From: Candidatus Rokuibacteriota bacterium
Lineage (GTDB): Bacteria; Methylomirabilota; Methylomirabilia; Rokubacteriales; CSP1-6
DNA length: 64,000 nt
Direction of reading: 5' to 3'
NCBI GenBank assembly: GCA_016866775.1
Contig: VGLJ01000002.1
Coordinates: forward strand, 28,174 to 92,173
Positions within the stretch are counted from its first letter, which is position 1. Every line of letters starts with the position of its first letter. Shown piece after piece: positions 6,980 to 61,973 of this stretch. The position numbers and the translations under genes are program-made. Under the pieces are notes generated by a model. The model was not told the DNA's origin and searched no databases. It was given only the letters and a program-made list of their open reading frames with translations.

Positions 6980-7518
6980 CAGGGATGCCGCCGCGGCGGG
7001 ATCGGGATCGGCGAGCGCGGGCGCCCGTCGGTGCCCGCGGGCTCGAGCGAGAGCAGCCTCTCCTTCGTATAGATCATCGACTGCCGGTCGTACGCCGAGA
7101 ACTCGAGGATGCCGGTGTCCATGCGGATCGCGTCTTCGGGACACGCCTCGACGCAGTACCCGCAGAACACGCACTTGCCGAGGTCGATGTCGAAGCGCTG
7201 CGGCATCTTCTCGATCTCGGGATTGGGATGCTCTTCGGCGACGATGTAGATGCAGCGCGCCGGGCACACGGTCTCGCACATCATGCAGGCCACGCAGCGC
7301 GGCGAGCCGTCCTCGCGGCGCACGAGCCGGTGCAGCGTGCGCAGGCGCGGCGACAGCGGCCGGCGCTCCTCCGGATACTGGATGGTGACCGCGCCCCGCG
7401 CGTCCTTCTTGCCGAGGCTCCGCGCGATGTGCTTGCCCATGTTGCGGAAGAAGTGGCCGGCGGTGAGACCGAGGCCGCTCAGCACCTCGCGGAGATAGAA
7501 CCGCTGGCCGAGGTTCAT
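6979..7518 (-). CDS. nuoI: NADH-quinone oxidoreductase subunit I (2x[4Fe-4S] ferredoxin)
   Basis: [12 protein letters not shown] and [12 protein letters not shown] motifs; start [11 protein letters not shown]. Confidence 0.9.
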
Positions 7519-8609: not shown

Positions 8610-10225
8610 GCTTTCGCCTCGGCGGGCGCTTGCGGGGCGGTGCCGGCGGTCATCGCGCCCGTGTCGCCGATCGACTGGTACGTCAAGCCGGCGAACGCGG
8701 GCACGCCGGCCGCCAGCGCGCGGAACCAGTGCTCGGCGCGCGTTGCCGTCACCGGCGCGCCCGTCGCCGCGAGGATCCGGCCGACGATCTCCCAGGTCGG
8801 GATCGCCTCGCCGAGCGCTCCGAGCGCGGGGCGGAAGCGCTGCACCCGGCCTTCGAAGCTCGTGAACGTGCCGTCGCGCTCCACCCAGGCCGACGCGGGC
8901 AGCGCGAGATGCGCGCGGTCGCTCGTGCGGCTGCCGTTCGGGCCGACGAAGATCAGCGTGTCGACGGCTTCGAGCGCGCTACGGACGTCGCTCTCGCGCC
9001 ACCCCGTGTCGAAGAGATCGTGCTCGAAGACGAGGAGCGATCGCACGCGATGCGCGGTCGCCTCGTTGAGGATCTTGTCCACCTTGCCGTCGAGGCCCAT
9101 GAGCTCGGCGCCGCGGGTGTTCGGGTTCTTGTCGGCGCGGATGAGGAAGTCGTCCTCGTAGCCCGGCTCGGGCGGCGGCACGCGGAAGCCGACCTGGCGG
9201 ATCCCGCGCGCCTCGGCGAGCGTCTTGATCGCGAAGAGGTCCTCGTTCGCGAGCTTCGGCGAGGCGATGATCGCGGTCTGGTCCGCGGGCGTGCGACCAA
9301 GCGCGTCGACGACGGCCGCGATCGCGCCGCCCCAGCTCAGCTCCCGCGTCTCGCCGGCGTCGTTCCGGACCGGCAGCACGAGGCGCGTCGGCGCGTCGAC
9401 GAAGCCGTATCCGTACCGGCCCTCGTCGCACATCCACCACCTGTTCACGTCCTCGTTGAAGCGCGGCTTCACGCGCGCCACGCGCCGGCCTTCCGCGTGA
9501 TGCGGGCGGCGCCGGTTGACGTGCACGTCGATGTTGCAGCCGCGCGCGCAGCCCGGGCAGATCGACTTCGTGGTGTCGAGGTACCAGACGCGAACCTGGA
9601 AGCGGAAGTCGCGGTCGGTGAGCGCGCCGACCGGGCAGATGTCGACCACGTTGCCGGAATACTTGTTGGTGAGGTCGGCGCCGGGGAAGAGGCCGATCTC
9701 CGAGTGATCGCCGCGATTGAAGATGCCGAGCTCGCCCGTCTGGGTGACCTCGTCGCAGAAGCGCACGCAGCGCGAGCAGAGGATGCACCGCTCGGCGTCG
9801 AGCATCACGTGCGGCCCGAGCGGCACCGCCTTCGGCTTGTGGACCTTCTCGTCCTTCATCCGCGGGTCGTAGAGGCCGTGCTGCATGTAGTAGATCTGCA
9901 GCCAGCACTCGCCGGCCTGGTCGCACACGGGGCAGTCGAGCGGGTGGTTGATCAGGTGGAACTCCATGATCGACCGCCGCGTCTCCTTCACCCGATCGGT
10001 CTGCGTGTGGACGATCATCCCGTCCGTCGCCGGCGTGTTGCACGCGATCGTCGGGCGCGGCGTCTTCTCGATGTCGACCATGCACAGGCGGCACTGGCCG
10101 GCGATGGAGAGTCCCGGGTGATAGCAGTAGTGCGGGATCTCGATGCCGAGCCGGCGCGCGGCCTCGATGAGATTGGTCCCCGCGGGGACCTCGATCTCCT
10201 TGCCGTCGATCGTCAGCTTCGGCAT
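8606..10225 (-). CDS. nuoG: NADH-quinone oxidoreductase subunit G (75 kDa, short form)
   Basis: 2Fe-2S and 4Fe-4S cysteine motifs (CYHPGLSIAGQCRLC, CPVCDQAGEC, CILCSRCVRFC); start MPKLTIDGKEI. Confidence 0.9.
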   Translation of the reverse strand: MPKLTIDGKEIEVPAGTNLIEAARRLGIEIPHYCYHPGLSIAGQCRLCMVDIEKTPRPTIACNTPATDGMIVHTQTDRVKETRRSIMEFHLINHPLDCPVCDQAGECWLQIYYMQHGLYDPRMKDEKVHKPKAVPLGPHVMLDAERCILCSRCVRFCDEVTQTGELGIFNRGDHSEIGLFPGADLTNKYSGNVVDICPVGALTDRDFRFQVRVWYLDTTKSICPGCARGCNIDVHVNRRRPHHAEGRRVARVKPRFNEDVNRWWMCDEGRYGYGFVDAPTRLVLPVRNDAGETRELSWGGAIAAVVDALGRTPADQTAIIASPKLANEDLFAIKTLAEARGIRQVGFRVPPPEPGYEDDFLIRADKNPNTRGAELMGLDGKVDKILNEATAHRVRSLLVFEHDLFDTGWRESDVRSALEAVDTLIFVGPNGSRTSDRAHLALPASAWVERDGTFTSFEGRVQRFRPALGALGEAIPTWEIVGRILAATGAPVTATRAEHWFRALAAGVPAFAGLTYQSIGDTGAMTAGTAPQAPAEAKA

Positions 10226-10226
10226 G

Positions 10227-11447
10227 TCAGCGCTGGCAGAGTGCTTCGAACTCGCCACGGAACTTCTCGATGTACGAGATGTACGGACCCACGGCGCCGT
10301 CGTAAAACGCGCAGATCGTCGTGCCCGCGCCGCGCTTGGCGACGTCGAGGATCGTGTCCAGGTCGTCCTTTCGGCCTTTGCCCTCGACGATGCGGTGACA
10401 CATCTTGTAGATCCAGCCGGTGGACTCGCGACACGGCGTGCACTGGCCGCAGCTCTCGTGCGCGTAGAAGCGCGCGACGACCATCAGCGCTTCGGGAATC
10501 GAGACCGTGTCGTCGAAGACGATCACGCCCGCGGAGCCCGCCATGGTGCCGGCGTTGCGCAGGCCGTCGACGTCCATGACCACGTCGATCTCGTGGGCGG
10601 CGAGGATCGGCGCCGACGAGCCGCCGGGGACGACGGCCTTCAGCCGGCCGCTGCCGCTGACGCCGCCCGCGCGCTCGATGAGCTCGCGCAGCGTGATCGC
10701 GCACGACTCCTCGTACACGCCTGGCGTGGTCACCCGGCCCGAGACCGAGTACATCCGGGTCCCACCCTGCGTCTTCGAGCCGAGTCCCGCGAACCACGCC
10801 GCGCCGCGGTTGATGATGTGCGGCACGCAGCAGATCGTCTCGACGTTGTTGACGATCGTGGGCTGCCCGAACGCGCCCTTGATGGCCGGGAACGGCGGCT
10901 TCACCTTCGGCCAGCCCTTCTTGCCCTCGAGCGAGGAGATCAGGCCCGTCTCCTCGCCGCAGATGTAGGCGCCGGCGCCGCGATGCACGACGATGTCGAA
11001 GCCCTGGCCGAGATAGCCCGCGTCGTAGGCCTCGCGTACGGCCGCGGTGAAGCGGCGCCACGGCTCCACGTACTCGCCGCGGATGTAGACGAACCCGAGC
11101 GCGGACTTGATCGCGCGCGCGGCGATGATCATGCCCTCGATGAGCGCGTGCGGGTCCCGCTCGAGGAGGTAGCGGTCCTTGAACGTGCCCGGCTCGCCCT
11201 CGTCCGCGTTGATGACGAGATACACGGGGCCGGAGTGGTTCTTCGGGATGAACGACCACTTCATGCCGGTCGGGAAGCCCGCGCCGCCGAGGCCGCGCAA
11301 GTTCGACTTCTTCACCTCGTCGAGGATCGCCGCGGGCTCTCTGCCGAGCGCTTGCGCGAGCGCCGTGTAGCCGCCGGTCTCGCGATAGACCTTGAGGGTG
11401 TGCGAGTCCTTCACCCCGAAGTTGCGCGAGAGGATCTTCTCGCTCAT
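10227..11447 (-). CDS. nuoF: NADH-quinone oxidoreductase subunit F (NADH/FMN-binding, 51 kDa)
   Basis: GLGGAGFPTGMKW, GAGAYICGEETGLISSLEGK and ESCGQCTPCR motifs. Confidence 0.95.
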   Translation of the reverse strand: MSEKILSRNFGVKDSHTLKVYRETGGYTALAQALGREPAAILDEVKKSNLRGLGGAGFPTGMKWSFIPKNHSGPVYLVINADEGEPGTFKDRYLLERDPHALIEGMIIAARAIKSALGFVYIRGEYVEPWRRFTAAVREAYDAGYLGQGFDIVVHRGAGAYICGEETGLISSLEGKKGWPKVKPPFPAIKGAFGQPTIVNNVETICCVPHIINRGAAWFAGLGSKTQGGTRMYSVSGRVTTPGVYEESCAITLRELIERAGGVSGSGRLKAVVPGGSSAPILAAHEIDVVMDVDGLRNAGTMAGSAGVIVFDDTVSIPEALMVVARFYAHESCGQCTPCRESTGWIYKMCHRIVEGKGRKDDLDTILDVAKRGAGTTICAFYDGAVGPYISYIEKFRGEFEALCQR

Positions 11448-11926
11448 CGGAGCGCCTCGACGATGCGGTCGACTTTGTCGGGCGTGAGGTTCATCTCGTA
11501 GCGGTCGTCCACCTGCATCATCGGCGCGGCCTCGCACGCGCAGAGACATTCCACGGCCTGCAGCGTGATGCGGCCGTCGTCCGTCGTCTCGCCCACGTCG
11601 ATGCCCAGGCGCTCCTTGAGGTGCGCGAGGATCAGCGGCGCGCCCGCGAGGTGGCAGGAGAGGTTGTGGCAGACGGCCACGACGTGGCGGCCCCTGGGCT
11701 GCCGGAAGTAGAGGGTGTAGAACGTCACCACTTCGTGCACGTGCGCGGGGCTCAGCCCGAAGAGCGACGCGACGTACTCCTCCACCTCGAGCGAGACGTA
11801 GCCGAACGTGTCCTGCGCCATGTGAAGCACCGGCAGCAGGGCGCCGCGCTTGTCGGGGTAGAGCCCCTGCAGCCGGCGGACTTCGGCAAGCTGCCCGGTG
11901 GAGAACGCGATCGACTGCACGCTCAC
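11444..11926 (-). CDS. nuoE: NADH-quinone oxidoreductase subunit E (24 kDa, 2Fe-2S), GTG start
   Basis: CHNLSCHLAG...ECLCACEAAP thioredoxin-like ferredoxin motifs. Confidence 0.9.
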   Translation of the reverse strand: MSVQSIAFSTGQLAEVRRLQGLYPDKRGALLPVLHMAQDTFGYVSLEVEEYVASLFGLSPAHVHEVVTFYTLYFRQPRGRHVVAVCHNLSCHLAGAPLILAHLKERLGIDVGETTDDGRITLQAVECLCACEAAPMMQVDDRYEMNLTPDKVDRIVEALR

Positions 11927-13311
11927 CGGTCGAGCTCCCCGCCGATCATGTTCACCGAGCCGAACGTCGGGATGAGATCGGCGATCATCTCGCCCTCGAT
12001 CATGCGATGGAGCGCCGCGAGCGGCGGCAGGCACGGCGGCCGGCAGCGCACGCGGTAGGGACGATCGCTCCCGTCCGAGACGACGTAGAACCCGAGCTCG
12101 CCGTTCGCGCCTTCGGTGGCGAAGTACGCCTCGCCCTGCGGCGGCCGGATCCCGTAGCCTTCCATGATCAGCATGAAGTGGTTCATGAGACCTTCGATGG
12201 AGCCGTACGCGTTCTCCTTCGGCGGCAGGACCACGCGCTTGTCGTGGACGTTCACGCGCCGCTGCGCGGCGCGCCCCTGGCCCTCGAGATTCGGCGAGAG
12301 CGTGATCGGCACGAGCAGCAGGCCTTCGGTCTTCCCCTGCTTGCCCTGGTCGACGTACATCGCCGGATCGATCGGGCGGCCTTCGTGGTCGACGTTCACG
12401 GGGCCCGCGGGGATCGCGTCGAGCGCCTGCTCGGCGATCCGCATCGACTGCTCCATCTCGGCCATGCGCACGAGATACCGCGCGTAGTTGTCGCCGTCCT
12501 TCTGCGTCGGGACTTCCCACTCCACGCGGTCGTACGCCCAGTGCGGCTGCGCCCGGCGCACGTCGTAGCCGACGCCGGCGGCGCGCAGCAGCGGCCCGGT
12601 GATCGCGTAGGCGATCGTCTCCTCGCGCGAGAGGCGGCCGACCCCGACCATGCGGTCCATGAAGATCCGGTTGCCGGTGAGCAGCCGGTGGACCTCGGCG
12701 AGCACCAGGCGCGTCTCGGCGAACGCCTTCTTCGCCTGCGCGGCGAAGCCGTCGGGCAGGTCGGCCTTCACGCCGCCGACGCGGCCGTAGGAGATCGTCA
12801 GCCGGGCGCCGGTCACCGCCTCGACGAGCTCCCAGAGGAACTCGCGCGCCTTGATCATGTAGAGGAACACGGTGAACGCGCCGAGCTCCATCGCCGACGC
12901 GCCGACGCACGTGAGGTGATCGCACACGCGCGAGATCTCGGACATGATCGTCCGGATGTACGTGCAGCGCTCGGTCACCTCGATGCCGAGGAGCTTCTCG
13001 ACCGCGTTGGCGTAGCCGAAGTTGTTGATGAGCGGGGAGACGTAGTTCAGGCGGTCCGTGTACGGGATCGCGTTGTTCCACCCGCCGACTTCACAATCCT
13101 TCTCGAACGCGCGGTGGAGATAGCCGATCTCGACGTCGGACTTCGTGATCATCTCGCCGTCGAGCTCCGTCGTGATCCGGATGATCCCGTGCATCGCGGG
13201 GTGCTGCGGCCCGACGCCGAGGTGCATGGGCTGGCTGCCGCCGCCGGTGCCGCCGCCTTCGCCGAGCATGAACTCGCGCGTGGTCGTGGGCCGAGGCTCT
13301 GTCGTGGCCAT
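11923..13311 (-). CDS. nuoD: NADH-quinone oxidoreductase subunit D (49 kDa)
   Basis: MHLGVGPQHPAMHGIIRI...C-terminal GSVNMIGGELDR. Confidence 0.95.
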   Translation of the reverse strand: MATTEPRPTTTREFMLGEGGGTGGGSQPMHLGVGPQHPAMHGIIRITTELDGEMITKSDVEIGYLHRAFEKDCEVGGWNNAIPYTDRLNYVSPLINNFGYANAVEKLLGIEVTERCTYIRTIMSEISRVCDHLTCVGASAMELGAFTVFLYMIKAREFLWELVEAVTGARLTISYGRVGGVKADLPDGFAAQAKKAFAETRLVLAEVHRLLTGNRIFMDRMVGVGRLSREETIAYAITGPLLRAAGVGYDVRRAQPHWAYDRVEWEVPTQKDGDNYARYLVRMAEMEQSMRIAEQALDAIPAGPVNVDHEGRPIDPAMYVDQGKQGKTEGLLLVPITLSPNLEGQGRAAQRRVNVHDKRVVLPPKENAYGSIEGLMNHFMLIMEGYGIRPPQGEAYFATEGANGELGFYVVSDGSDRPYRVRCRPPCLPPLAALHRMIEGEMIADLIPTFGSVNMIGGELDR

Positions 13312-33090: not shown

Positions 33091-34613
33091 GGGCTCACGA
33101 TCCTCGCGAGCAGGGGCACGGTGGCGGTGTCGACGGGCACGAGCGCGAGGCCGGGCGCCATGCCGAACAGCACGAGCGTGAACACCAGCACCACGATCGC
33201 GACCCACTCCGGTCCCCGCGCGTCGACGAGATCGTGGAAGTGTGGCGACGGCGGGCCCCAGAAGATCTGGCGGACCACGCGCAGCACGTAGACCGCGGTG
33301 AGCAGCGTGCCGAGGACCGCGGGCCACAGCCACCAGCGGTGATCGGAGCGCCACGCGCCCATGAACGTCAGCACCTCGGCGACGAACCCGGCCGTGGCCG
33401 GCAGCCCGAGCGACGACAGGCCGCCGATCGTGAACGCGGTCGCGATGCCGGGCATCGCCGCGCCGAACCCGCCCATCTTGAAGATCTCGCGCGAGTGCGC
33501 CTTCTCGTACACGAGCCCCACCAGCGCGAAGAAGAGGCCGGTCATCACGCCGTGCGCGAACATCTGAAAGACGGAGCCGTTCAGGCCGGCTTCCGTGAGC
33601 GTCGCCGCGCCCAGCATCACGAGGCCCATGTGCGAGACCGACGAGTACGCGATCACGTACTTGAGGTCGACCTGCGCCATCGCCGACAGCGCCCCGTAGA
33701 CGACGTTGATGCACGCGATGCCGCCCACCAGCCACGCGAGGTCCACGGCCCCTTCGGGCAGGAGGCCCATGCCCACGCGCACGACGCCGTACGCGCCGAG
33801 CTTCATCAGCACGCCCGCGTGGAGCATCGAGACCGCCGTCGGCGCGGAGGCGTGGCCGTCCGGCGACCAGGTATGCAGGGGCCAGATGCCGGCGAGGATG
33901 CCGAAGCCGACGTAGAACGCGAGAAAGACCCAGCGCTGGACCCCGAACTCGAACGTGATCGCCTCGAGGTCGAGGAACGAGAACGAGGCGGCGCCGGCAT
34001 TGACGTAGAGTGCGAAGATCCCCACGAGGATGAACGCCGACCCGAAGAGCAGGTAGAGGGTCAGCTTCATCGCCGCGTACTCCTTCGTCCCCACGCCGGT
34101 CTCGCGGAACGCCCACGCGAAGATCCCGCGCGGCCTCACCTCGCCGCTCGAGCCCCAGATGCCGATGAGCAGGTACATCGGGAGCACGGCGAGCTCGTAG
34201 AAGAGGAAGAGGACGAAGAGATCGAGCGAGCAGAAGACGCCGTAGACCCCGGTGACGAGCGCGAGCAGCAGCGCGTAGAACTCCTGGCTCCGCGTCTGCA
34301 CCGTCCACGACGCGAACACGCCCGTGAAGATGATGATCGAGGTGAGCAGCACCATCAGCAGGCTCATGCCGTCGACGCCGAGCTCGTACGAGATCCCGAG
34401 CGGCGGGACGAGCGACAGCTTCTCGTAGAACTGGAAGCCCGCCGCCTCGGTGTCGTACGCCACGTAGATCCACAGCGAGAGGACCGTGGAGATACCCGTC
34501 GTCACGACCGCGATCAGGCGGACCAGGAGCGGCCGGTGGCGCGCCAGGGACATGATCAGCAGCGCGCCGATGAACGGCGACCACGTGATGACGGACAGAA
34601 GCGGAAACCTCAC
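33087..34613 (-). CDS. nuoM: NADH-quinone oxidoreductase subunit M (cluster 2), GTG start overlapping the nuoL stop
   Basis: NuoM/ND4 family signature (WLPDAM-like HTWSPDGH..., antiporter fold). Confidence 0.9.
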   Translation of the reverse strand: MRFPLLSVITWSPFIGALLIMSLARHRPLLVRLIAVVTTGISTVLSLWIYVAYDTEAAGFQFYEKLSLVPPLGISYELGVDGMSLLMVLLTSIIIFTGVFASWTVQTRSQEFYALLLALVTGVYGVFCSLDLFVLFLFYELAVLPMYLLIGIWGSSGEVRPRGIFAWAFRETGVGTKEYAAMKLTLYLLFGSAFILVGIFALYVNAGAASFSFLDLEAITFEFGVQRWVFLAFYVGFGILAGIWPLHTWSPDGHASAPTAVSMLHAGVLMKLGAYGVVRVGMGLLPEGAVDLAWLVGGIACINVVYGALSAMAQVDLKYVIAYSSVSHMGLVMLGAATLTEAGLNGSVFQMFAHGVMTGLFFALVGLVYEKAHSREIFKMGGFGAAMPGIATAFTIGGLSSLGLPATAGFVAEVLTFMGAWRSDHRWWLWPAVLGTLLTAVYVLRVVRQIFWGPPSPHFHDLVDARGPEWVAIVVLVFTLVLFGMAPGLALVPVDTATVPLLARIVSP

Positions 34614-36433
34614 GGCGTCCGCCACCACCGCGCCCAGACCAGCAGCAGCAGCACGCCGAAGGCGACGCCGTAGACGTAATCCTGCGCCTGCCCGCTCTGG
34701 ATCCGGCGGAGCGCGTCGCCCGCGCGCAGGCTCCACGCGCTGCAGACGTTCAGGATGCCGTCGACCACGTAGCGATCGATCCAGCCGACGACGCGCGAGA
34801 ACCCGAGCATCAGCCCGCGGTAGATGCCGCCGTAGATCGCGTCGAGGAAGTAGCGCCGGCGCGCGAGGAAGTCGATGGTCGCGAGCGGGCGGCGCACGAG
34901 CTCGACCGGGATGACGCCCGTGCCGTACATCGCCCACGCGAGCGCGATCCCGCCGCCCGCGAGCGCGAGCGAGAGAACGGTCAACCACACCGGCGGGTGG
35001 TGATCGCCGGGCGCGCCGATCACGAAGCGCACGCCGATCGCGACCGTGAGTGCCGCGAGCAGCCACAGCGGCCCGCGCATCAGCCACGGCGGGTCGTGCG
35101 GAGGGTGCGTGTCGCCGTGCGGATGACCGGGCCCGAAGAACGTGATGAAGACCACGCGGAACATGTAGAACGCCGTGAGGAACGCGGTGACCGCGAGCGC
35201 CACGAACACGCCCGGCCGGCCGCCGGCCACGACGCCTTCGAGGATCGCCTCCTTCGAGAAGAAGCCCGCGAGCGGCCACACGCCGGCCAGCGCCAGCGTG
35301 CCGGCGATGAACACGATGCCGGTGTGCGGCATGAACCGCCAGAGCCCGCCCATGCGGAAGATGTCGTTGGTGCCGACGGCGTGGATGACCGCGCCCGCGC
35401 CGAGGAAGAGCAGCGCCTTGAACACGCCGTGCGTGAGGAGATGGAAGAAGCCCGCGGCCGCGGCGCCCGCGCCCGCGGCGGCCAGCATGTACCCGAGCTG
35501 CGAGACCGTGGAGTACGCGAGCACGCGCTTGATGTCGCTCTCGACGCACGCCATCGTCGCGGCGAGGAGCGCGGTGAACGCGCCGACGCGCGCGACGATC
35601 GTGAGCACGGCCGGCACGAGCACGAGCAGCGGCTCGGAGCGCGCCACGAGGAAGACGCCGGCCGTCACCATCGTGGCCGCGTGGATGAGGGCGGACACGG
35701 GCGTCGGCCCCTCCATCGCGTCCGGCAGCCACACGTGCAGCGGGAACTGCGCCGACTTTCCGACGGCGCCCAGGTAGATCAGGAACATGATCGTGGTGAG
35801 GCCCTCGAGCGGCAGCGTCTGGTCCTTCGCCATCCGGAACAGCGCCTCGAACTCGAAGGTGCCGGTGTTCGACCACAGCATCACGATGCCGGCGACGAAG
35901 CCGAGATCCCCGAGCTTGGTCGTCCAGAACGCCTTCACCGCGGCGCGCGCCGCCGCCGGCCGCGTGTACCAGAAGCCGATCAGCAGGTACGAGCACAGAC
36001 CGACCAGCTCCCAGAACACGAACATCTGGAGGTACGTCGGCGAGAGCACGAGCCCGAGCATCGAGAACGCGAACAGCGACTGGTACACGTAGTAGCGGCC
36101 GAGCGAGCGCGGCGGCTCGTCGTCGAGATACGCGAGCGAGTAGACCTGCACCAGCAGCGACACCAGCGTGACGAGCACGAGCATCGGCGCCGACAGGCCG
36201 TCGAGCAGCAGCCCGACGGTGGCCATCGGGCCGCCGTCGCCCGGCAGCCACGGCACGATCAGCGACCCGCGCGCGCCGTCGCGCCAGATCACGAGCGCCG
36301 TCACGAACGCGGCCGCCGTCGCGGCGGTGCTCACCCAGCCCGCGAGCACGCCGCGCCGGCGCAGCGGCGCCGCGAGCGAGAGGAGGAGAAAGACGGCGAA
36401 CGGCAGCGCGAGGACGACGAGCGGCTTATCCAC
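34610..36433 (-). CDS. nuoL: NADH-quinone oxidoreductase subunit L (cluster 2)
   Basis: NuoL/ND5 signature (...FPLHVWLPDAMEGPTPVSALIHAATMVTAGV...), 607 aa. Confidence 0.9.
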   Translation of the reverse strand: MDKPLVVLALPFAVFLLLSLAAPLRRRGVLAGWVSTAATAAAFVTALVIWRDGARGSLIVPWLPGDGGPMATVGLLLDGLSAPMLVLVTLVSLLVQVYSLAYLDDEPPRSLGRYYVYQSLFAFSMLGLVLSPTYLQMFVFWELVGLCSYLLIGFWYTRPAAARAAVKAFWTTKLGDLGFVAGIVMLWSNTGTFEFEALFRMAKDQTLPLEGLTTIMFLIYLGAVGKSAQFPLHVWLPDAMEGPTPVSALIHAATMVTAGVFLVARSEPLLVLVPAVLTIVARVGAFTALLAATMACVESDIKRVLAYSTVSQLGYMLAAAGAGAAAAGFFHLLTHGVFKALLFLGAGAVIHAVGTNDIFRMGGLWRFMPHTGIVFIAGTLALAGVWPLAGFFSKEAILEGVVAGGRPGVFVALAVTAFLTAFYMFRVVFITFFGPGHPHGDTHPPHDPPWLMRGPLWLLAALTVAIGVRFVIGAPGDHHPPVWLTVLSLALAGGGIALAWAMYGTGVIPVELVRRPLATIDFLARRRYFLDAIYGGIYRGLMLGFSRVVGWIDRYVVDGILNVCSAWSLRAGDALRRIQSGQAQDYVYGVAFGVLLLLVWARWWRTP

Positions 36434-36734
36434 GGAGCAGATCGAGCCGGTCGGCGTCGATGGTGCGACGCACGCGGAAGATGACGATGACGATGGCGAG
36501 ACCGACGGCGACCTCGGCGACCGTGATCGCGATGGTGAACAGCGCGAACAGGAGGCCGATCGGATCGCCGTGCAGCCGCGCGAACGCGACGAGGTTGATG
36601 TTGACCGCGTTCAGCATGAGCTCGATGCCGAGGAGGATCCCGACCGCGTTGCGCCGGGTGAGGACGCCGAAGAGCCCGATCGCGAACACGAGGGCGGCGA
36701 CCACCAGGTAGGAGTGGAGCCCGGGCACGCTCAA
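36426..36734 (-). CDS. nuoK: NADH-quinone oxidoreductase subunit K (cluster 2)
   Basis: GIELMLNAVNINLVAF signature; paralog of 6189..6491. Confidence 0.9.
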   Translation of the reverse strand: MSVPGLHSYLVVAALVFAIGLFGVLTRRNAVGILLGIELMLNAVNINLVAFARLHGDPIGLLFALFTIAITVAEVAVGLAIVIVIFRVRRTIDADRLDLLRG

Positions 36735-37231
36735 TCCTCGCGCGCGAAGTAGAGCGCGCCGAGCAGGGCGATGACGAGCAGTACGCCGAGGAGCTCGAAC
36801 GGCACCGCGTAGGGACCGAGGATCGCCCGCGCGAGCGCGACGGTCTGGTCGCCGCCGGGCGGCGGCGTCGCCGGTGCGGCCGGCGCGGGCCCCGATTGCA
36901 CGAGGAAGCCGACGATGCCCACGAACACGGCCACGGAGACGATGACGCCGTTGACGAGGTCGTGGCTCGACTGGCGGATCCTGAGCCCCACGATCCGCTC
37001 GGTCAGCATGATCGCGAAGACCACGAGCACGACCACACCGCCCGCGTAGAGCAGCAGCTGGACGCCGAAGAGGAACGGCGCGTGGAGAAAGAGGAAGACG
37101 ACGCCGGTGGCGACGAGGGCCACGGCGAGGAAGAGCACCGAGTGGAAGAGGTTCGGCGTGAGCACGACCGCCAGGCTCGAGGCCAGCAGCACCACGGCTA
37201 CGGCCCAGAACCCCGCGGTCGCGGCGGTCAC
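36731..37231 (-). CDS. nuoJ: NADH-quinone oxidoreductase subunit J (cluster 2), GTG start
   Basis: Hydrophobic NuoJ-like sequence; GTGA overlap with the nuoI stop. Confidence 0.85.
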   Translation of the reverse strand: MTAATAGFWAVAVVLLASSLAVVLTPNLFHSVLFLAVALVATGVVFLFLHAPFLFGVQLLLYAGGVVVLVVFAIMLTERIVGLRIRQSSHDLVNGVIVSVAVFVGIVGFLVQSGPAPAAPATPPPGGDQTVALARAILGPYAVPFELLGVLLVIALLGALYFARED

Positions 37232-37791
37232 TCGGTCGACTCCTTCGCCTCTCCCTTCGCGGCCGGCGCCTTCGCCGGCTTCGGCGGCGCCTGCATGTCG
37301 CGGAGCCTGTTGCCCGTCGCCCACGACGGCTCGAAGTCGAGACCGATCGCGTGCAGCCGGTCCTTGTCGAGGAGGAGCTCGCGGCGGTCGGCCGTCGCGA
37401 GGTCGAACGACTTCATCATGATGATCGCGTCGGTCGGGCAGACCTGCACGCACAGCTCGCAGAACTCGCACGCGTAGAGCTCGAGCTGGAAGACCTTCGC
37501 GAAGTTCCGCTTCTCGGCCTTCAGCATCTCGACCTTGATCACCTGCGGCGGGCAGATGTACTCGCAGAGCCGGCAGCCGATGCAGTTCTCCTCGCCCGTC
37601 TCCTTGTCGTAGGTGAGCGCGAGGATCCCGCGGAAGCGGTCGGGGTAGAGGCGCTTGACGTCGGGATAGTGCACGGTGACCGGCTTGCGGCCGAGGTTCT
37701 TCAGCGTCACGCCCATCGCGCGTCCCACCGCGCGCACGAGCCGGCCGAAGTCGCTCCAGAACCCGGCGCCGTTGCGCGCTGCCTCAGGCAC
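37228..37791 (-). CDS. nuoI: NADH-quinone oxidoreductase subunit I (cluster 2)
   Basis: CIGCRLCEYICP and CEFCELCVQVCP ferredoxin motifs. Confidence 0.9.
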   Translation of the reverse strand: MPEAARNGAGFWSDFGRLVRAVGRAMGVTLKNLGRKPVTVHYPDVKRLYPDRFRGILALTYDKETGEENCIGCRLCEYICPPQVIKVEMLKAEKRNFAKVFQLELYACEFCELCVQVCPTDAIIMMKSFDLATADRRELLLDKDRLHAIGLDFEPSWATGNRLRDMQAPPKPAKAPAAKGEAKESTE

Positions 37792-38770
37792 CGGCCCCTC
37801 CGCGCAGCGCGACCCAGAACGCGGTCACGAGCAGCAGGCCCAGCGTCGCCGGCAGCAGCAGCTTCCACGACACCGCGAGGATCTGGTCCACGCGGATGCG
37901 CACGAAGCTCCAGCGCACCCACGTGACGACGAGAAAGACCAGCATCGCCTTCAGGAGGAACCAGAGCACGCCGATCGCCGGGATGTCGGAGCCGGGGCCC
38001 AGCCAGCCGCCGAGGAAGAGCAGCGCGCCGAGGAAGGAGCTCGCGATCATGTGGGCGTACTCGCCGAGCTGGATGATCGCGAACTTCATCCCGCTGTACT
38101 CGACGCGGAAGCCCGCGACCAGCTCCGACTCCGCCTCGAGGATGTCGAACGGCACGCGGTTCTCGGCGGCGAGCGTCGCGACGAGGAACGCGACGAAGCC
38201 GAGCTGGCCGATGACCGGATACGCGACGAACCAGAGGCCCTGCTGCGCGGCGACGATCGCGGACATCTGCAGCGAGCCGGCGAGCACCACCGGGATGAGC
38301 GCGGCGAAGACGAACGGCAGGTCGTAGGAGATGATCTGGTTCACCGCGCGCATCGCGCTCAGCAGCGCGTACTTGTTGTTCGAGCCCCAGCCGCCCATGA
38401 AGAGGCCGACGATCTCGAGCGACGACACCGCGAGGAAGAACAGCACGCCGATGTTGAGGTCGGCGAGGCCCAGCCGGGGCGCGAACGGGATCGTCGCGAA
38501 GATGAGCACGCACGGGATGAGGAACACGATCGGCGCGAGGTTGTAGACCCACCGGTCGGCCGCGCGCGGCACGATGTCTTCCTTCATCATCAGCTTGAGC
38601 GCGTCGGCGATCGGCTGCAGCAGCCCGTGCGGGCCGACGCGGTACGGCCCGATCCGCGACTGCATCCGCGCCGCGAACTTGCGCTCGAGAAGCGTCACGT
38701 ACGTGACCATCCCGATCACGGCGTTGAGCAGGATGAAGGCGGCGAGCGCGTCCAGCGCGAGATGCTCCAT
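37784..38770 (-). CDS. nuoH: NADH-quinone oxidoreductase subunit H (cluster 2)
   Basis: NuoH/ND1 signature (ERKFAARMQSRIGPYRVGP..., EAESELVAGFRVEYSG). Confidence 0.95.
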   Translation of the reverse strand: MEHLALDALAAFILLNAVIGMVTYVTLLERKFAARMQSRIGPYRVGPHGLLQPIADALKLMMKEDIVPRAADRWVYNLAPIVFLIPCVLIFATIPFAPRLGLADLNIGVLFFLAVSSLEIVGLFMGGWGSNNKYALLSAMRAVNQIISYDLPFVFAALIPVVLAGSLQMSAIVAAQQGLWFVAYPVIGQLGFVAFLVATLAAENRVPFDILEAESELVAGFRVEYSGMKFAIIQLGEYAHMIASSFLGALLFLGGWLGPGSDIPAIGVLWFLLKAMLVFLVVTWVRWSFVRIRVDQILAVSWKLLLPATLGLLLVTAFWVALRGGAGA

Positions 38771-38773
38771 GGC

Positions 38774-39937
38774 CTAGCGGTCCACCTCGCCGAAGACCGG
38801 ATCCACGGAGCCCATGATGGCGACGACGTCCGCCACCTTGCAGCCCGGGATGATGTGCGGGAGGATCGCGAGGTTCGAGAACGAGGCGCCGCGCACCTTC
38901 ATGCGATAGGGCTTCGGGCCGCCGTCGGCGACGATGTAGAAGCCGATCTCGCCGCGCGCGCCCTCGACGCGCGCGTACCCTTCCCCCTTCGGCACGCGCA
39001 CCTGCCCGACCGACTTCACGCCCGGCCGCGACGAGATCGGCCCCTCGGGCAGCCCGTCGAGCGCCTGGCGGACGATCTTGATCGACTCGCGGAATTCGAC
39101 CATGCGCACGCGGTAGCGCGCGTAGCAGTCGCCCGCCGTCTCCACGGGCACCTTGAAGTCGAAGTCCTGGTAGGACGAGTACGGCTCCGCGCGGCGCAGG
39201 TCGAAGTCGATCCCGGAGCCGCGCGCGAGCGGGCCCGACACGCCGACCTCCTGCGCGAGGGTCGCGCTGATCACCCCGACGCCCTGCGTGCGCACGAGGA
39301 AGAACGCGTTGTCCTCGAGCATCGCCTCGTACTCGTCGAGGCGCTGCTCGATGAGCGCGATCGTCTCGCGGCACGTCTGCGCCCAGCCCGGCGGGATGTC
39401 GTAGCGCGTGCCGCCGACCTGGTGGAAGCCGTAGAGCAGGCGCGCGCCGGTGAGCGACTCGAAGAGATCGAGGATCAGCTCGCGCTCGCGGATGCAGTAG
39501 AGGAACACCGTGGCGCCGCCGCCGAGTGCCCCGCCCATGTCGAGGCACCACGTGCCGAGCCAGAGGCAGTGCGAGGCGATCCGCTGGAGCTCGGCGACGA
39601 TCACGCGCAGGTACTGCGCGCGCTTCGGGACCTCGAAGCTCGCCACCTTCTCAACGGCGGTGACGTAGGCGAGCTCGGCGGTCATCGCGGCCACGTAGTC
39701 CGTCTTCGACGCGATCGTCGGGTACTGCACGTACGTCAGCATCTCGCCGAGCTTCTCGTGACAGCGATGCAGGTAGCCGATGACCGCGTCGACGGCGACG
39801 ACGGTCTCGCCCTCGAGCGTGAGGATCGCGCGGAAGACGCCGTGGGCGGACGGGTGCTGCGGCCCCATGTTCATCACGAGGCGCTCGTTGCCCCCGTAGC
39901 CGAGCTCGATGACTTTCCGCGATTCGCTGTCCGCCAT
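38774..39937 (-). CDS. nuoD: NADH-quinone oxidoreductase subunit D (cluster 2); true start MADSESRKVIELGYGG
   Basis: NMGPQHPSAHGVFR...C-terminal GSVDPVFGEVDR. Confidence 0.9.
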   Translation of the reverse strand: MADSESRKVIELGYGGNERLVMNMGPQHPSAHGVFRAILTLEGETVVAVDAVIGYLHRCHEKLGEMLTYVQYPTIASKTDYVAAMTAELAYVTAVEKVASFEVPKRAQYLRVIVAELQRIASHCLWLGTWCLDMGGALGGGATVFLYCIRERELILDLFESLTGARLLYGFHQVGGTRYDIPPGWAQTCRETIALIEQRLDEYEAMLEDNAFFLVRTQGVGVISATLAQEVGVSGPLARGSGIDFDLRRAEPYSSYQDFDFKVPVETAGDCYARYRVRMVEFRESIKIVRQALDGLPEGPISSRPGVKSVGQVRVPKGEGYARVEGARGEIGFYIVADGGPKPYRMKVRGASFSNLAILPHIIPGCKVADVVAIMGSVDPVFGEVDR

Positions 39938-39942
39938 CCGGC

Positions 39943-40578
39943 CTACTTCATCGGCGAGGACGGCGCCGGGATCAGGATGATCGACTTCATGTCGACGAGC
40001 AGCGGCGTCGCCTTGCCGAGGAATGCCTGCCACTCGGGATCCGCGATCGCCCTGGCGCGCACCGACGCACGCTCGTTGAGGTCGCGGTACGCCCACATGT
40101 GCACGGCCTCGTTGAGCTGGCCCGCTTCCGTCTGCCACAGGCCCACGTTCTTCGAGTACTTCTCGCGCACGGGCATGATGTCCTTGATGTGGCCGATCCA
40201 TTCGCCGATCCGGCCCGTGTGCGACCGGTACCAGCGGAGCTCGTAGAGCCATCCGCTGTCCGCGGGCGGCTCGAGCGGCAGCTGCGGCGAGAGGATCTTG
40301 TTCTCCTGCGCGAGGATCAGCGTGCGGATGCGCGGCACGTACTCCTTCGTCCACGCGTCGTTCTTCGCGAGCTGACCGCGCAGCCGCTCGCGCTCGTCGA
40401 GGCTCGGATACTCCCAGAGGTGGACGTACCGGTTGAGCGTCCCGAACTCGGTCGTCCACGAGCCGGCGAGCCGGCCGTAGTCGTCACCGCGGATCTTGCG
40501 GCCGACCTCGACGTTCAGCTTGAGGTACTCGGGCAGCTTGCCCGGCGTCAGCGTGTAGGTGCGCAGCTCGTAGATCAT
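39943..40578 (-). CDS. tandem NIPSNAP-domain protein embedded between nuoC and nuoD of cluster 2
   Basis: Two repeats of YELRTYTL...G.W..E.G.LN..VHLWEY.SL.ER (second: YELRWYRSH...VHMWAYRDLNERA). Confidence 0.8.
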   Translation of the reverse strand: MIYELRTYTLTPGKLPEYLKLNVEVGRKIRGDDYGRLAGSWTTEFGTLNRYVHLWEYPSLDERERLRGQLAKNDAWTKEYVPRIRTLILAQENKILSPQLPLEPPADSGWLYELRWYRSHTGRIGEWIGHIKDIMPVREKYSKNVGLWQTEAGQLNEAVHMWAYRDLNERASVRARAIADPEWQAFLGKATPLLVDMKSIILIPAPSSPMK

Positions 40579-40597
40579 GCGTCCTTCCTCTCTCGCC

Positions 40598-41057
40598 TCA
40601 GCGGTACGGCGAATAGTCGGCGTCCACGAAGTCCTTGCGCAGCGGGTGGCCGGCCGGCCAGTCCTGTCCGAGCAGGATGCGCCGGAGATCGGGATGGCCG
40701 TCGAAGACCACGCCGAACATGTCGTAGCACTCGCGCTCCATCCAGTCCGCGCCCTTCCAGACGTCCGTCAGCGTCGGGCAGTGCACGTTGCCCGCGCCGA
40801 GCTTCGTCCGCAGCATCAGCGCCACGCGGCTCTCGAGGTTCTCGACCCGGCAGACGACTTCGAAGCCCTGCTCCTTCCAGTCGATCGCGCTGAGCCAGCT
40901 GAAGTAGAGACAGCCGATGGCGTCATGGGCGATCCGCGCGGCCGCGTGCCAGCGATCGACCGGCACGTCGAGCGTCACCAGCGCGCCCGCGACGGTCGGG
41001 GTCAGACCGAGGTGCTGTTCGAGGCGGGCGGCCGCGACGTCGAACGCGATCTTCAAG
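40598..41057 (-). CDS. nuoC: NADH-quinone oxidoreductase subunit C (cluster 2), probable TTG start
   Basis: [25 protein letters not shown] signature. Confidence 0.85.
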
Positions 41058-41685
41058 AGGTGGCGGCCGGCGTGACGACGCGCGTGCCCGTCTTCTGGAA
41101 CTCCGCGACCTGCTCCTGGAGCTTGAGCAGCCCGTACATGAGGGAATCCGGCGTGGGCGGACAGCCGGGGACGTAGACGTCGACGGGCACGACGCGATCC
41201 ACGCCCTTGACCACGTGGTAGCCGTGACGGAACGGGCCGCCGGAATTCGCGCACGACCCCATCGACACCACCCACTTCGGGTCGGGCATCTGGTCGTAGA
41301 TGCGCTTGAGCATCGGCGCCATCTTGATGGTCACGGTGCCCGACACGATCATCAGATCGGAGTGGCGGGGCGAGGCCCACGGGACCATGCCGAATCGCTC
41401 GACGTCGAAGCGGCTGGCGAACGTGGCCATCATCTCGATCGCGCAGCACGCCAGGCCGAACGTCACGGGCCAGAGCGAGGACTTGCGCGCCCAGTTGAAG
41501 ATCTTGTCCGTCGACGTGGTGACGATCCAGCCGCCGGGCATGTGGTGGATCGCGTCGGCGATCGACGCGAGCGTGTTCGACGTCTTGTCGTCGCCGGCCC
41601 GGGTCTGATGGTACTTCTCCCACTCCTGCAGATCCTTCACGTCGCTCCAGCCGGGCGGCGGGACCTGGGGCAGGGGCCGCTTCAC
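41053..41685 (-). CDS. nuoB: NADH-quinone oxidoreductase subunit B (cluster 2), GTG start overlapping the nuoA stop
   Basis: [12 protein letters not shown]...[10 protein letters not shown]...VPGCPPTPD motifs. Confidence 0.9.
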
Positions 41686-42035
41686 TTCCACTCCAGCACT
41701 CCCTCGCGATACGCGTACACCCAGCCGAGCATCACGATCGCGATGAACGCGGCCATCACCCAGAACGCGCCGAGGCCGGCGGTGCGCACGACGAGGGCCC
41801 ACGGGATGACGAAGACCGCCAGCGCGTCGAAGACGATGAAGACCAGCGCGACGAGGTAGAACCCGACCGGGAACTGGACCCATGCAGAGCCGATGGGCTC
41901 GGCACCACATTCGTAGTTCTCGAGCTTCACAGCATCGGGCCGCGCCGGCCGGAGCAGCCACGCGACGCCGATCGACACCACGCCGAACGCGACGATGAAG
42001 GCGGCGAATATCGCGACTGCCAGGTACTCGGACAC
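41682..42035 (-). CDS. nuoA: NADH-quinone oxidoreductase subunit A (cluster 2), GTG start, GGAGG RBS
   Basis: [12 protein letters not shown]...NuoA signature; upstream AT-rich CATATATACT -10-like box. Confidence 0.9.
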
Positions 42036-47507: not shown

Positions 47508-47838
47508 GGCGCCATTATAGGCGTGTATCAAACACTGGACATTCACGGGCGTGCGGCGGGGTCGCTAGCGTCGATGGAATGGCCACTCTCTCGTCGGCGT
47601 CGACGGTGATCTAAGCGAACGAAAGAAGGAGGGTCGCCATCCGCTGTGGAAGCTGCGCTACGCGAAGGCTGAGTCGATCCGACTCATCCGTTGGATGTAC
47701 TACGCGCCGGACGTTCCTTGTCTCGCACGGACGCGTGCGAAGGCCGAGCGATTCCTTTCGCCGCTCGGTCGGAGCAACACTCGTCCTGCAGGTCGACCGC
47801 GAGTCGGGTGGCTGTACAATGATTCGGCCTCCGAGAGT

Positions 47839-47924
47839 GCCGGAGTGGAGTAACGGTAGCCTCGTGGCGCTCAAAACGCCATGCCCGCAAGGGCGTGTGG
47901 GTTCGAATCCCACCTCCGGTACCA
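47839..47924 (+). tRNA. tRNA-Leu (anticodon CAA), type II, CCA encoded
   Basis: Manual fold: acceptor GCCGGAG/CTCCGGT, anticodon loop CTCAAAA, variable arm GCCC-GCAA-GGGC, T-loop TTCGAAT; TACAAT -10 at 47815..47820. Confidence 0.85.
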
Positions 47925-47993: not shown

Positions 47994-48069
<76 letters not shown>

Positions 48070-48082
48070 TTTCATTCCTCTC

Positions 48083-48409
48083 GTGATCCTCTACACCACC
48101 ACCGGCTGACCGACCTGCACCCGCGCGAGAGAGGATCTCTCGCGTCGCGGCCTCGCCTACACGAACCGGCCCGTCGACGAGCAGCCGGTCGACCGCGAGG
48201 GGACGCTCGCCATCGCGCGCGGCGCCCGGCACCTGCACGTCAAGCTGGGTGACACGCTCGCGCGGCTCGACGGTCCCTTCACCGACGCGGAGCTCGCGAA
48301 GTATCTCGTGCACGAGGACGGCTTCATGCGCGTGCCCGTCCTCGTGCGCGGCGACCTGATCGTGCGCGGCTACACCGACGCGCTGTACCGCGACGCGCTC
48401 GGCGACTGA
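48083..48409 (+). CDS. candidate selenoprotein: Spx/ArsC/YffB-family thioredoxin-fold protein (108 aa) with in-frame UGA (48107..48109) replacing the first Cys of CxxC (UPTC)
   Basis: GTG start 13 nt after tRNA-Ala. Translation MILYTTTG-U-PTCTRAREDLSRRGLAYTNRPV...FMRVPVLVRGDLIVRGYTDALY aligns with Spx LYTSPSCTSCRKAR...RRPIIID..LQVGY. High GC3 on both sides of the UGA; SECIS-like hairpin downstream. Confidence 0.55.
48122..48146 (+). promoter_or_regulatory. SECIS-like hairpin (stem CGCGAGAG/CTCTCGCG, apical loop AGGAU) 15 nt downstream of the in-frame UGA
   Basis: 8-9 bp stem; loop G residues lie 23-29 nt after the UGA, within the bacterial SECIS spacing window. Confidence 0.45.
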
Positions 48410-48431: not shown

Positions 48432-48905
48432 TCACCGCACCAGCGTGTACTGCACCTGCTGGTTCACCGGCAGCACGTCGATCACGCCGAAGCCGGCGAC
48501 GAACAGATCCGAGAGGGCCTGAGCGCACGGTGCGCCCGGGGCGACGGTCGGGCCGCCCGCGCTGGTGCTCGCGCTCGACACGAGCAATCGGCCGGCGCCC
48601 GTTGAAAACTCGGGGGCGCAGACGATGATCGCCGCCTCTCGCGGCGCCGGCGTCGCGGTCGTGCTCGCCGCCGGCGGCGGCGTGACCGACGTGTTGGGCG
48701 AGAGCGTTCCGGTGGTGTTCGTCTGCGCCGCCAGCGTAGCCGGTGCCAGCATCAGCATCAGGACCGCGAGCGTCGTCCGCATCATCCCCTCCTGACGATG
48801 CTCCTGACACGATCCGTGCGTCTCGGAGCGATTGTCCATCGGCTCGACCTCGCCGACGTTCGCGGGCCGCCCTTCACGCTCGCACCACGCGCATTTCAAC
48901 TTCAT
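48432..48905 (-). CDS. hypothetical membrane-anchored protein: N-terminal Cys/His zinc-ribbon-like segment, one TM helix, Pro/Thr-rich linker, small C-terminal domain (alternative start at 48785 gives a secreted form)
   Basis: MKLKCAWCEREG...THGSCQEH then MMRTTLAVLMLMLAPATLAAQ; GAGG RBS 8 nt before the ATG at 48903-05; lower-GC upstream region. Confidence 0.4.
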   Translation of the reverse strand: MKLKCAWCEREGRPANVGEVEPMDNRSETHGSCQEHRQEGMMRTTLAVLMLMLAPATLAAQTNTTGTLSPNTSVTPPPAASTTATPAPREAAIIVCAPEFSTGAGRLLVSSASTSAGGPTVAPGAPCAQALSDLFVAGFGVIDVLPVNQQVQYTLVR

Positions 48906-61050: not shown

Positions 61051-61054
<4 letters not shown>

Positions 61055-61719
61055 GACTCCCCCCGCGGCTGGCCTTCGGTGGTCGGAACCTCGCCCGCCT
61101 CCATGAGGTGCTTGAGGCGCCGCAGGTCGTCCTGCACCTGCTGGCTCGGCTCCTCGCCGAAGAGCTTCGCGATGACGGCGGCGAACTTGCCGCCGGGCGG
61201 CGCGTACGCGAGCGACACGCGAATCGTCGTCCCCCGCCCGCCGGGGCCGCGCTCGAACGCGACGGCCCCGGCGTTGCGGATGTCGGCGTCGTCGAGCGAG
61301 CGCCAGGCGATGAGCTCGTTGGGGCGCTCGTCGACGATCTCGGCGTCCCACGTGACGCGCCGTCCCGCCGGCGCGCGCGCCACCCAACGCGAGCGGCGCG
61401 GGCCGTCGCACGTCACCGACTCGAGGTGCCGCATGAAGCGCGGCAGGTTCTCGAAGGCGCGCCAGAAGGCGTAGACCTCTTCCACCGGCTTGTTGATGGC
61501 GACCGTACGCCGGACGGTGACGCCGCGGCAGTGCGCGAGGCTCGCGACGCGCGCGACGTGCGTGGGCTCCTCGCGGAGCCCCAGCGCGTCGTAGAGCAGG
61601 CTCCTGCCGCGCGCGGCGCGATAGATGAGCGCGCCGCCGCCCAGCGCGGCGAGCGCTCCCGACCGGCCGCCACGCGACAGCCCGAACACGAGCAGCAGGC
61701 TGCCGCCCACGAGCGACAC
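61051..61719 (-). CDS. SRPBCC/START-fold protein with N-terminal membrane segment
   Basis: [30 protein letters not shown]... polyketide-cyclase/COQ10-like signature. Confidence 0.55.
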
Positions 61720-61973
61720 CCAGCGCTCGCTCTCGTCGATGTTGACGTGCGCGCTCTGCCAGCGCCGGCGCGCGAGCGCGGCGCTCTCCGCGCCGCGCCC
61801 CGCCTGATCGCCCCGCCGTCATGGCTGTTCCTGGTCCCGGCGACGGCGAATGCGGGAACGCGTTTGGGTCATGGCGGGGTGCTTGGGAGCGAACCGCGTG
61901 CCATCGACCTCGCCAACGGGATCGTGGCCGCCGGCTTGCACCCCGCTGCACAGCCGCTCCGCGAGCGCCGCGC

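Follow-up and report, generated by a model that had tools for sequence, protein, structure and literature searches.

The window analysed here is a stretch of 64,000 nucleotides of contig VGLJ01000002.1 from a Candidatus Rokuibacteriota bacterium, and the locus of interest in it consists of two tRNA genes followed on the same strand by an open reading frame of 108 codons plus stop (48083..48409, +), which is interrupted by an in-frame TGA. The genes for tRNA-Leu(CAA) at 47839..47924 (+) and tRNA-Ala(GGC) at 47994..48069 (+) were both recognised by ARAGORN and Rfam; the former is the first gene of a probable transcription unit and the latter lies immediately upstream of the open reading frame. 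Since tRNA-Ala ends at 48069, the GTG start codon (48083..48085, +) is located 13 nt past the 3′ end of the tRNA, behind the leader UUUCAUUCCUCUC. The in-frame TGA (48107..48109, +) is preceded by 8 codons, and an RNA hairpin with a conserved 7-bp core GCGAGAG/CUCUCGC and the loop A-G-G-A-U at 48132-48136 is located downstream of it within the coding sequence (48125..48143, +). Homologues in 91 loci share the frame, the position of the start codon and the TGA. Based on the comparison of these sequences, 48083-48409 was interpreted as the gene of a 108-residue selenoprotein of a Rokubacteria-type (Methylomirabilota) organism, in which UGA would be translated as selenocysteine (Sec, U) with the hairpin serving as bacterial selenocysteine insertion sequence (SECIS), and this interpretation is given a probability of about 0.88. 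The product would read M-ILYTTTG-U-PTC..., an oxidoreductase of glutaredoxin fold resembling ArsC, Spx and YffB, with Sec as the first residue of a U-P-T-C redox motif.

The frame had been proposed from the bare sequence, and on re-reading its coordinates (GTG at 48083, TGA at 48107 and the terminal stop TGA at 48407-48409) proved exact and the translation identical. The G+C content at third codon positions (GC3) of the gene is 0.94. Downstream of the TGA at 48107 the first in-frame ATG, GTG or TTG is the Val codon of the motif YLVHED, so that no callable gene exists at this locus without recoding; what remains if UGA is read as stop was rightly described as a start-less fragment. TGA is the usual stop codon for 27 of the 39 genes predicted in the window and it also terminates the gene itself, and therefore the recoding would have to be specific for the site, while the genetic code as such is not changed. 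In the closest relatives (loci L009, L020 and L023) a GTG start codon is found in the same place.

A search for similar proteins, in which U was written as C, yielded 44 relatives, all of which were N-terminally truncated gene calls, and two of them begin with "MCT...", exactly past the putative U-P. The DNA of homologues was obtained from three sources, namely the contigs encoding these proteins, contigs of a collection with one genome per species (9 loci) and metagenome contigs (75 loci). Eight of the nine one-genome-per-species loci carry titles of "Candidatus Rokubacteria/Rokuibacteriota" metagenome-assembled genomes (MAGs) and one that of an "uncultured bacterium" MAG; the remaining loci are mostly found on soil and groundwater metagenome contigs. 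The codon aligned to 48107 is TGA in all 91 loci with the N-terminus on the contig, which correspond to 75 distinct nucleotide sequences (TGA in 75/75) with 46-86% amino-acid identity to the window protein. Every copy possesses an ATG or GTG 6-13 codons upstream of the TGA, and the N-terminal motif (I/V)LYN(K/R)xG directly before the TGA is conserved, so that coding conservation is present on both sides of it. Among the homologous loci neither an orthologue with identical flanks and TGC in place of TGA, which the sequence-only reading had asked to look for, nor any other close homologue with Cys was recovered, though such forms would fit GCPTCT[RSN]AR, one of the two patterns used in the search. 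The expectation that gene callers would miss or truncate the gene was borne out as well, as the database proteins of the family are without exception N-terminally truncated calls, or are absent. Two aberrant copies were seen: locus L041 contains from 5726 onward a second, truncated gene copy of 46 codons with a duplicated "YN", and in one further metagenome locus the product diverges past "...VRGFTD" and reaches 126 aa. Both are probably due to a frameshift or an assembly error.

The breadth of the family was assessed with a hidden Markov model (HMM) built from the region after the UGA of five family sequences. A search of 1.84 billion representative proteins with this profile led to only 98 proteins at E ≤ 1e-3. 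The family is therefore narrow. The clade appears to be confined to Rokubacteria/Methylomirabilota.

The hairpin is formed by the inverted repeat CGCGAGAG-AGGAU-CUCUCGCG at 48124-48144, and in the window the stem reaches 8-10 bp (48123-48145). The distance from the UGA to the first stem base of the repeat is 14 nt and the loop G residues lie 24-25 nt past the UGA. RNAalifold analysis of 48 distinct 60-nt segments from the homologues resulted in a consensus stem of 7 bp (GCGAGRG/CUCUYGC) closed by a loop of 5 nt, A-G-[G/U]-N-N, and a hairpin of the form GCGAGRG-AGNNN-CUCUYGC is present in every homologous copy. According to the account of the bSECISearch model (Zhang and Gladyshev) in PMC13188914, bacterial SECIS elements have a stem of 4-16 bp closed by a loop of 3-9 nt, a G at one of the two leading positions of the loop (typical pattern N1-G-[G/U]-N-N2), a spacing of 16-37 nt between UGA and loop, and a minimum free energy (MFE) of at most -7.5 kcal/mol. 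The window hairpin agrees with all four constraints as summarised there: the stem has 7 bp, the loop 5 nt, the UGA-to-loop spacing is 22 nt and the MFE is -15.8 kcal/mol, with values from -7.7 to -15.8 across 48/48 distinct copies. A hairpin of bacterial SECIS geometry, as postulated from the sequence at 48124-48144, is thus present. No match to the Rfam SECIS families was found in the hairpin region, only chance matches with E > 1. The SECIS of E. coli fdhF has a bulged U; the window hairpin is without one, and its primary sequence is specific for the family, being common also to the sister clade described below.

The codons that form the hairpin are nearly frozen at synonymous positions. They encode the conserved A-R-E-x-L-S of helix 1, and the Ala codon is GCG (75/75), the Glu codon GAG (75/75) and the Leu codon CTC (75/75), while another invariant Ala column of the alignment is made up of GCG 35, GCC 31 and GCA 8. 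The Ser codon is TCG in 71/71 sequences, and the four copies with another residue have TTG, by which a G-U pair is kept. The Arg codon is AGA in 52 and AGG in 23 sequences and CGN in none (75/75 AGR, where R is a purine); outside the hairpin 5% of the Arg codons of the family are AGR (Fisher p = 1.7e-80 compared with the hairpin Arg), and AGA does not occur among the 509 Arg codons of 15 window genes. The mean synonymous entropy was 0.18 bits for the hairpin codons and 0.92 bits elsewhere (p = 0.002). In the six inner stem pairs no pair-breaking change was observed among the 48 distinct sequences, and the only changes in the stem are from A-U to G-U (11 sequences) and from G-C to G-U (3 sequences). 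Judged by this codon usage, the hairpin RNA itself is under selection.

Full-length matches with Cys at the Sec position were found only in more distant relatives, that is in the proteins P0052 (C-P-A-C), P0087 (C-P-S-C) and P0047 (C-P-T-S). Their Cys aligns to the UGA position, forming Cys/Sec pairs with the window family, and the UGA accordingly sits at the first Cys of the CxxC motif, where the earlier reading had placed it. The clade of P0052, referred to as the sister clade, shares about 36% identity with the window protein, has source names including NC10 and Methylomirabilales, and comprises both full-length Cys forms and truncated calls. For the truncated genes with available DNA (L097 and L098) a TGA was found together with the hairpin GCGAGRGAGUUUCUCUCGC. 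In the Cys form L095 the hairpin is lost; the corresponding residues AEVKEFLE are encoded by unrelated codons and the fold amounts to -2.5 kcal/mol. In the Cys form L096 the residues A-R-E-Y-L-A and the codon AGA are retained (6049-6069), the stem is broken and the fold amounts to -6.3 kcal/mol. The rare AGA in a broken hairpin looks like a relic of a recent conversion from Sec to Cys. A check of whether the hairpin tracks the UGA, also suggested by the earlier reading, therefore came out positive: the hairpin is retained in the Sec forms L097 and L098 and is missing in the Cys forms L095 and L096, a pattern that would be expected of a SECIS. The L096 gene is located on a contig of 5.6 Mb. Taken together, the proposal that the UGA encodes Sec is supported by the invariant TGA, the coding conservation on both sides, the frozen hairpin and the Cys/Sec pairs with the sister clade.

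Support for the use of Sec in this lineage is indirect and was obtained from a further UGA-containing gene on related contigs and from the literature. A homologue of the peroxiredoxin family (AhpC/Prx) with an in-frame TGA at the position of the peroxidatic Cys, DWG(S/G)I-U-TPEL, is encoded on the contigs of one clade, L001 (8740-9213, -), L005 (9782-10261, -) and L008 (8012-8465, -), where about 3.5 kb separate it from the gene homologous to that of the window, and it was called as two fragments (45 + 92 aa). It is followed by a hairpin of 8 bp with a loop that opens with G, and this loop lies 22 nt past the UGA in three lineages. By these features it is a second selenoprotein, of the Prx type. 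Rokubacteria are now classified as order Rokubacteriales of the phylum Methylomirabilota (PMC8780371). A Methylomirabilota MAG with 63 predicted selenoprotein genes is cited in a 2026 review (PMC13188914), and Sec-type group 4 hydrogenases have been reported in Methylomirabilota (PMC13582414). A literature search combining Rokubacteria and selenocysteine revealed nothing directly on the family of the window gene.

The window itself was screened for further selenoprotein candidates. A GC3-based scan for in-frame TGA codons led only to antisense frames and junctions of adjacent genes, and a scan of the window for TGA codons followed by hairpins gave about 10 geometric matches, none of which is in frame in a coding region. 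One candidate at 61798-61821 (-), where a TGA bounding the ORF 61051-61818 is combined with a perfect 8-bp hairpin at SECIS-like spacing, was rejected as a chance match, the upstream frame being without redox motif and coding signal.

The encoded protein was compared with family models and structures. The only Pfam model passed was PF00462 (Glutaredoxin), which matched residues 2-44 of 108 with 35.3 bits (1.3e-8) above its gathering score of 22.9. PF03960 (ArsC) covered residues 4-103 with 13.9 bits (E = 0.068), below its gathering score of 24. The NCBIfam models NF041212 (Uxx-star; 45.8 bits, 5e-12, cut-off 66) and NF041106 ("ArsC family (seleno)protein"; end-to-end match with 35 bits, cut-off 85) also remained below their thresholds, as did TIGR01617 (Spx/MgsR) with 18.5 bits for the window protein at a cut-off of 75, the best family member reaching E = 7.3e-8. 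All 31 of the 31 family members tested match NF041106, the best with E 7.5e-16, and none was reported above the cut-off. The profile of the family gave full-length matches to 2m46 (6e-8), YffB (1rw1, 4e-6) and Spx (3l78, 2.5e-5; 1z3e, 2.6e-5), and it matched glutaredoxins over the N-terminal half. The assignment to the Spx/ArsC/YffB proteins made from the sequence thus stands at the level of profile similarity within the superfamily and does not extend to membership in any curated family (ArsC 13.9 vs 24 bits, NF041106 35 vs 85 bits).

A predicted model of the window protein lacking strand 1 had a predicted local distance difference test (pLDDT) score of 80, and the fold search on this model was uninformative. 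A full-length Cys homologue of the sister clade was used as a stand-in for the window protein in structure modelling. The scores obtained for the stand-in were 9.5 with Spx, 9.3 with the ArsC-related structure 3gkx and 9.1 with YffB (82-85 residues), and 9.2 with glutaredoxin and 8.9 with NrdH (about 71 residues), so that Spx, the ArsC family and YffB score practically the same as plain glutaredoxins and NrdH. The thioredoxin-fold arrangement of CxxC/UxxC proteins was found, with a beta-alpha-beta ... beta-beta-alpha core in which the redox motif lies at the N-terminal end of helix 1 and strand 3 is preceded by a cis-Pro loop. The insert was predicted as helix, beta-hairpin and helix. The insert of ArsC and Spx proteins is all-helical. 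The Sec residue aligns to the catalytic Cys position of the glutaredoxin-coupled R773 ArsC-type arsenate reductase, an enzyme type that has in addition an arsenate-binding Arg triad and is usually encoded in an ars operon; no arsR, arsB or ACR3 was noticed among the genes called around the examined loci.

From these comparisons the product is a protein of glutaredoxin fold and ArsC/Spx/YffB type that has an insert and a signature peculiar to itself, a relative of known families and a member of no curated one. It resembles the NF041106 proteins in its length (about 107 aa), in the alignment of residues 4-102 to model positions 5-107 with UxxC at the same N-terminal place, in the thioredoxin/glutaredoxin fold with an insert and in the coexistence of Cys and Sec forms, and it differs by the signature LVHEDGF(L/M)RVPVL...VRG(Y/F)T as opposed to the NF041106-like WxYxRxxCxTC...G(P/R)xGxLRAP...VGF. 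Proteins of the NF041106 type are listed as "arsenate reductase-like protein, UxxC" (PMC9312934, PMC13188914). From the ArsC/Spx/YffB superfamily (PF03960; 2m46, 1rw1, 3l78, 1z3e, 3gkx) it is set apart by the sub-threshold Pfam score and by the beta-hairpin predicted in the insert. With the selenoprotein glutaredoxins and Uxx-star proteins (PF00462; NF041212, NF041114) it shares the N-terminal beta-alpha-beta unit with U/C-P-x-C and Sec at the nucleophilic position, whereas the match is limited to residues 2-50 and the window protein is about 30-40 residues longer through the insert; Uxx-star proteins end right past the Uxx motif and the window protein, which is below the NCBIfam cut-offs, does not. 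The first description of ArsC-like selenoproteins is that of Zhang et al. 2006 (PMC1794560), and UxxC selenoproteins of the ArsC-like and glutaredoxin-like kinds have been on record since the mid-2000s (PMC1794560; tables in PMC9312934 and PMC13188914).

According to the proposed mechanism, translation would begin at GTG 48083, and at UGA 48107 the hairpin 15 nt downstream (7-bp core GCGAGAG/CUCUCGC, loop AGGAU) would act as bacterial SECIS, recruiting SelB-GTP-Sec-tRNA(Sec) so that Sec is inserted in place of termination. The resulting protein would combine a thioredoxin fold of the glutaredoxin type with an inserted module of helix, beta-hairpin and helix as in the ArsC/Spx/YffB superfamily. 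Sec9-Pro-Thr-Cys12 would be placed at the N-terminal end of helix 1, the site that the nucleophilic Cys occupies in CxxC oxidoreductases, and from this placement it follows naturally that the product would most likely cycle between selenol/thiol and selenenylsulfide and thereby reduce a disulfide or another oxidised substrate. The mRNA is probably part of a transcript comprising tRNA-Leu, tRNA-Ala and the gene, and would be freed by tRNA 3′ processing.

Several observations weigh against the decoding of this gene as a selenoprotein gene. The GTG at 48083 is not preceded by a Shine-Dalgarno sequence, and the leader behind the tRNA has only 13 nt. Genes for SelA, SelB, SelD and tRNA-Sec were found neither by tRNA scan nor by Pfam scans of 30 window ORFs in the 64-kb window, and no tRNA-Sec was found in 40 related loci. 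Folding of the single 60-nt sequence was not significant (z = -1.48), 17 of 200 shuffled sequences folding as well. Moreover, the window DNA has 70% G+C and contains 43 perfect hairpins of at least 8 bp, and about 10 combinations of TGA and hairpin with SECIS geometry exist among its 1420 TGA trinucleotides, so that the window hairpin alone is not statistically remarkable; it is far beyond chance because of the comparative data across homologues. Double compensatory substitutions in the near-invariant stem were absent from the 48 distinct sequences, and the structural evidence therefore comes from the frozen synonymous sites and from the loss of the hairpin in the Cys forms, for which the comparison comprises the DNA of just two sequences (L095 and L096). 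Finally, the protein P0045 (JGI samples 3300056388 and 3300043331) reads ...LYSRSD-R-PSC... with Arg at the Sec position, which may represent a CGA mutant or an inactive copy.

Some of these observations would also suit a decayed pseudogene or non-coding remnant with a TGA that really terminates translation and a hairpin of unrelated function, such as a signal for processing or termination of the tRNA transcript: the gene abuts a tRNA and has no Shine-Dalgarno sequence, no gene caller delivers a full-length product, and the hairpin geometry alone is not rare in a GC-rich window. Nevertheless, a pseudogene would not retain 46-86% identity, a GC3 of 0.94, an intact frame, the start and a single TGA in 75 sequences. 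Most homologues are not located beside a tRNA and have retained TGA and hairpin all the same, and the hairpin is without a U-tract and its codons specify the conserved A-R-E-x-L-S. A true stop therefore appears to be already contradicted by the comparative data and is the least credible of the explanations considered. Recoding of the UGA by a SECIS/SelB-type route to Cys, with a Cys-charged tRNA carrying a UCA anticodon, is slightly more credible and still very improbable. Recoding of Sec codons to Cys was reportedly proposed by Mukai et al. in 2016 for some uncultured bacteria, and the evidence for recoding applies equally to this possibility, as the sequence cannot tell which amino acid is delivered. 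Against it, such systems are rare and Methylomirabilota are reported to be rich in selenoproteins, and the full-length TGC-coded relatives of the sister clade have dropped the hairpin, which is expected if UGA gives something that Cys does not.

A third explanation concerns the function of the product, which could be not an enzyme but a Sec-containing regulator of the Spx type that senses the redox state by a Sec-Cys switch and binds to RNA polymerase. Against it, the scores to Spx, to ArsC/YffB and to glutaredoxins/NrdH are nearly equal and all far below the family cut-offs. In addition, the inserted module is predicted to contain a beta-hairpin, and Spx regulators are essentially a Firmicutes family. 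A Sec-dependent transcription regulator is not known to have a precedent. This role is considered improbable, if somewhat less so than decoding to Cys. The interpretation as a Sec-containing redox enzyme decoded through a SECIS is thus preferred.

On this evidence the gene appears to be a genuine unannotated selenoprotein gene, whose product represents a divergent subfamily of the known ArsC/glutaredoxin-like UxxC selenoproteins. The decoding mechanism would be the standard bacterial one, and the knowledge of Sec decoding as such is unchanged. New is a divergent subfamily, apparently limited to one phylum, which is captured by none of the curated models and is truncated or overlooked by every gene caller. 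The Sec form seems to be present in every Rokubacteria copy with a readable codon at the Sec position, and within the sister clade there is a clear contrast between Sec and Cys forms in the retention of the SECIS, which provides a clean natural experiment on how a SECIS within a coding sequence is gained and lost. Because none of the curated selenoprotein models of NCBIfam and Pfam attains its cut-off, annotation is wrong throughout the Rokubacteria clade; a dedicated model from the 75 homologous sequences would correct it. The finding also supports recent reports of unusually selenoprotein-rich Methylomirabilota from soil and groundwater.

With respect to expression, a promoter-like site TCGACC-16 nt-TACAAT was detected at 47793..47820 (+) upstream of tRNA-Leu by a consensus scan (2 sites vs 0.2 expected); it is a candidate promoter that may serve the tRNAs and the selenoprotein gene as one transcript. 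No terminator-like site was found between it and the selenoprotein gene. The order tRNA-Leu(CAA), tRNA-Ala(GGC) and selenoprotein gene recurs in L007, L020, L022-L025 and L029, and L021, which is cut before the Leu gene, has retained tRNA-Ala and the same spacer. In this subclade the spacer from the tRNA 3′ end to the start codon measures 13-23 nt and the leader is pyrimidine-rich without a Shine-Dalgarno sequence, e.g. UUUCAUUCCUCUC-GUG, which suggests that tRNA processing sets the mRNA free. It is plausible that the gene is transcribed together with the tRNAs and that an mRNA whose very short leader has no Shine-Dalgarno sequence is then released. Co-transcripts of tRNA and mRNA have a precedent in E. 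coli tufB. If such a transcript is formed, 3′ processing of the tRNA precursor would tie the synthesis of the selenoprotein to the transcription of the tRNA operon. In other clades the same tRNA pair or tRNA-Lys(UUU) is located farther upstream (tRNA-Lys at 100-1100 nt), and recognisable Shine-Dalgarno sequences are present. The most divergent clade (L017-L019 and L089-L091) has, about 15 nt upstream of the ATG, a -10-like TATACT box 9 nt before this codon, which would give a leaderless or nearly leaderless mRNA in these loci.

No operon partner is conserved across the clades: one clade has a Cys-rich ORF of 68 aa, L007 an overlapping ORF of 87 aa and the window a convergent gene for a secreted protein. 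The latter (48432-48785, -) encodes a small secreted protein with the signal peptide MMRTTLAVLMLMLAPATLAAQ and a Thr/Pro-rich linker, and it is also conserved downstream of the selenoprotein homologue in L009. Elsewhere in the window, two separate sets of complex I (nuo) genes are located at 7515-13311 and 34610-42035 (-), including two homologues of NuoH (NADHdh) and two of NuoD (49-kDa). The NuoD homologue encoded at 38774-40459 is 561 aa long, with a match to the 49-kDa domain that is limited to residues 314-561, and it may be a putative NuoC-NuoD fusion.

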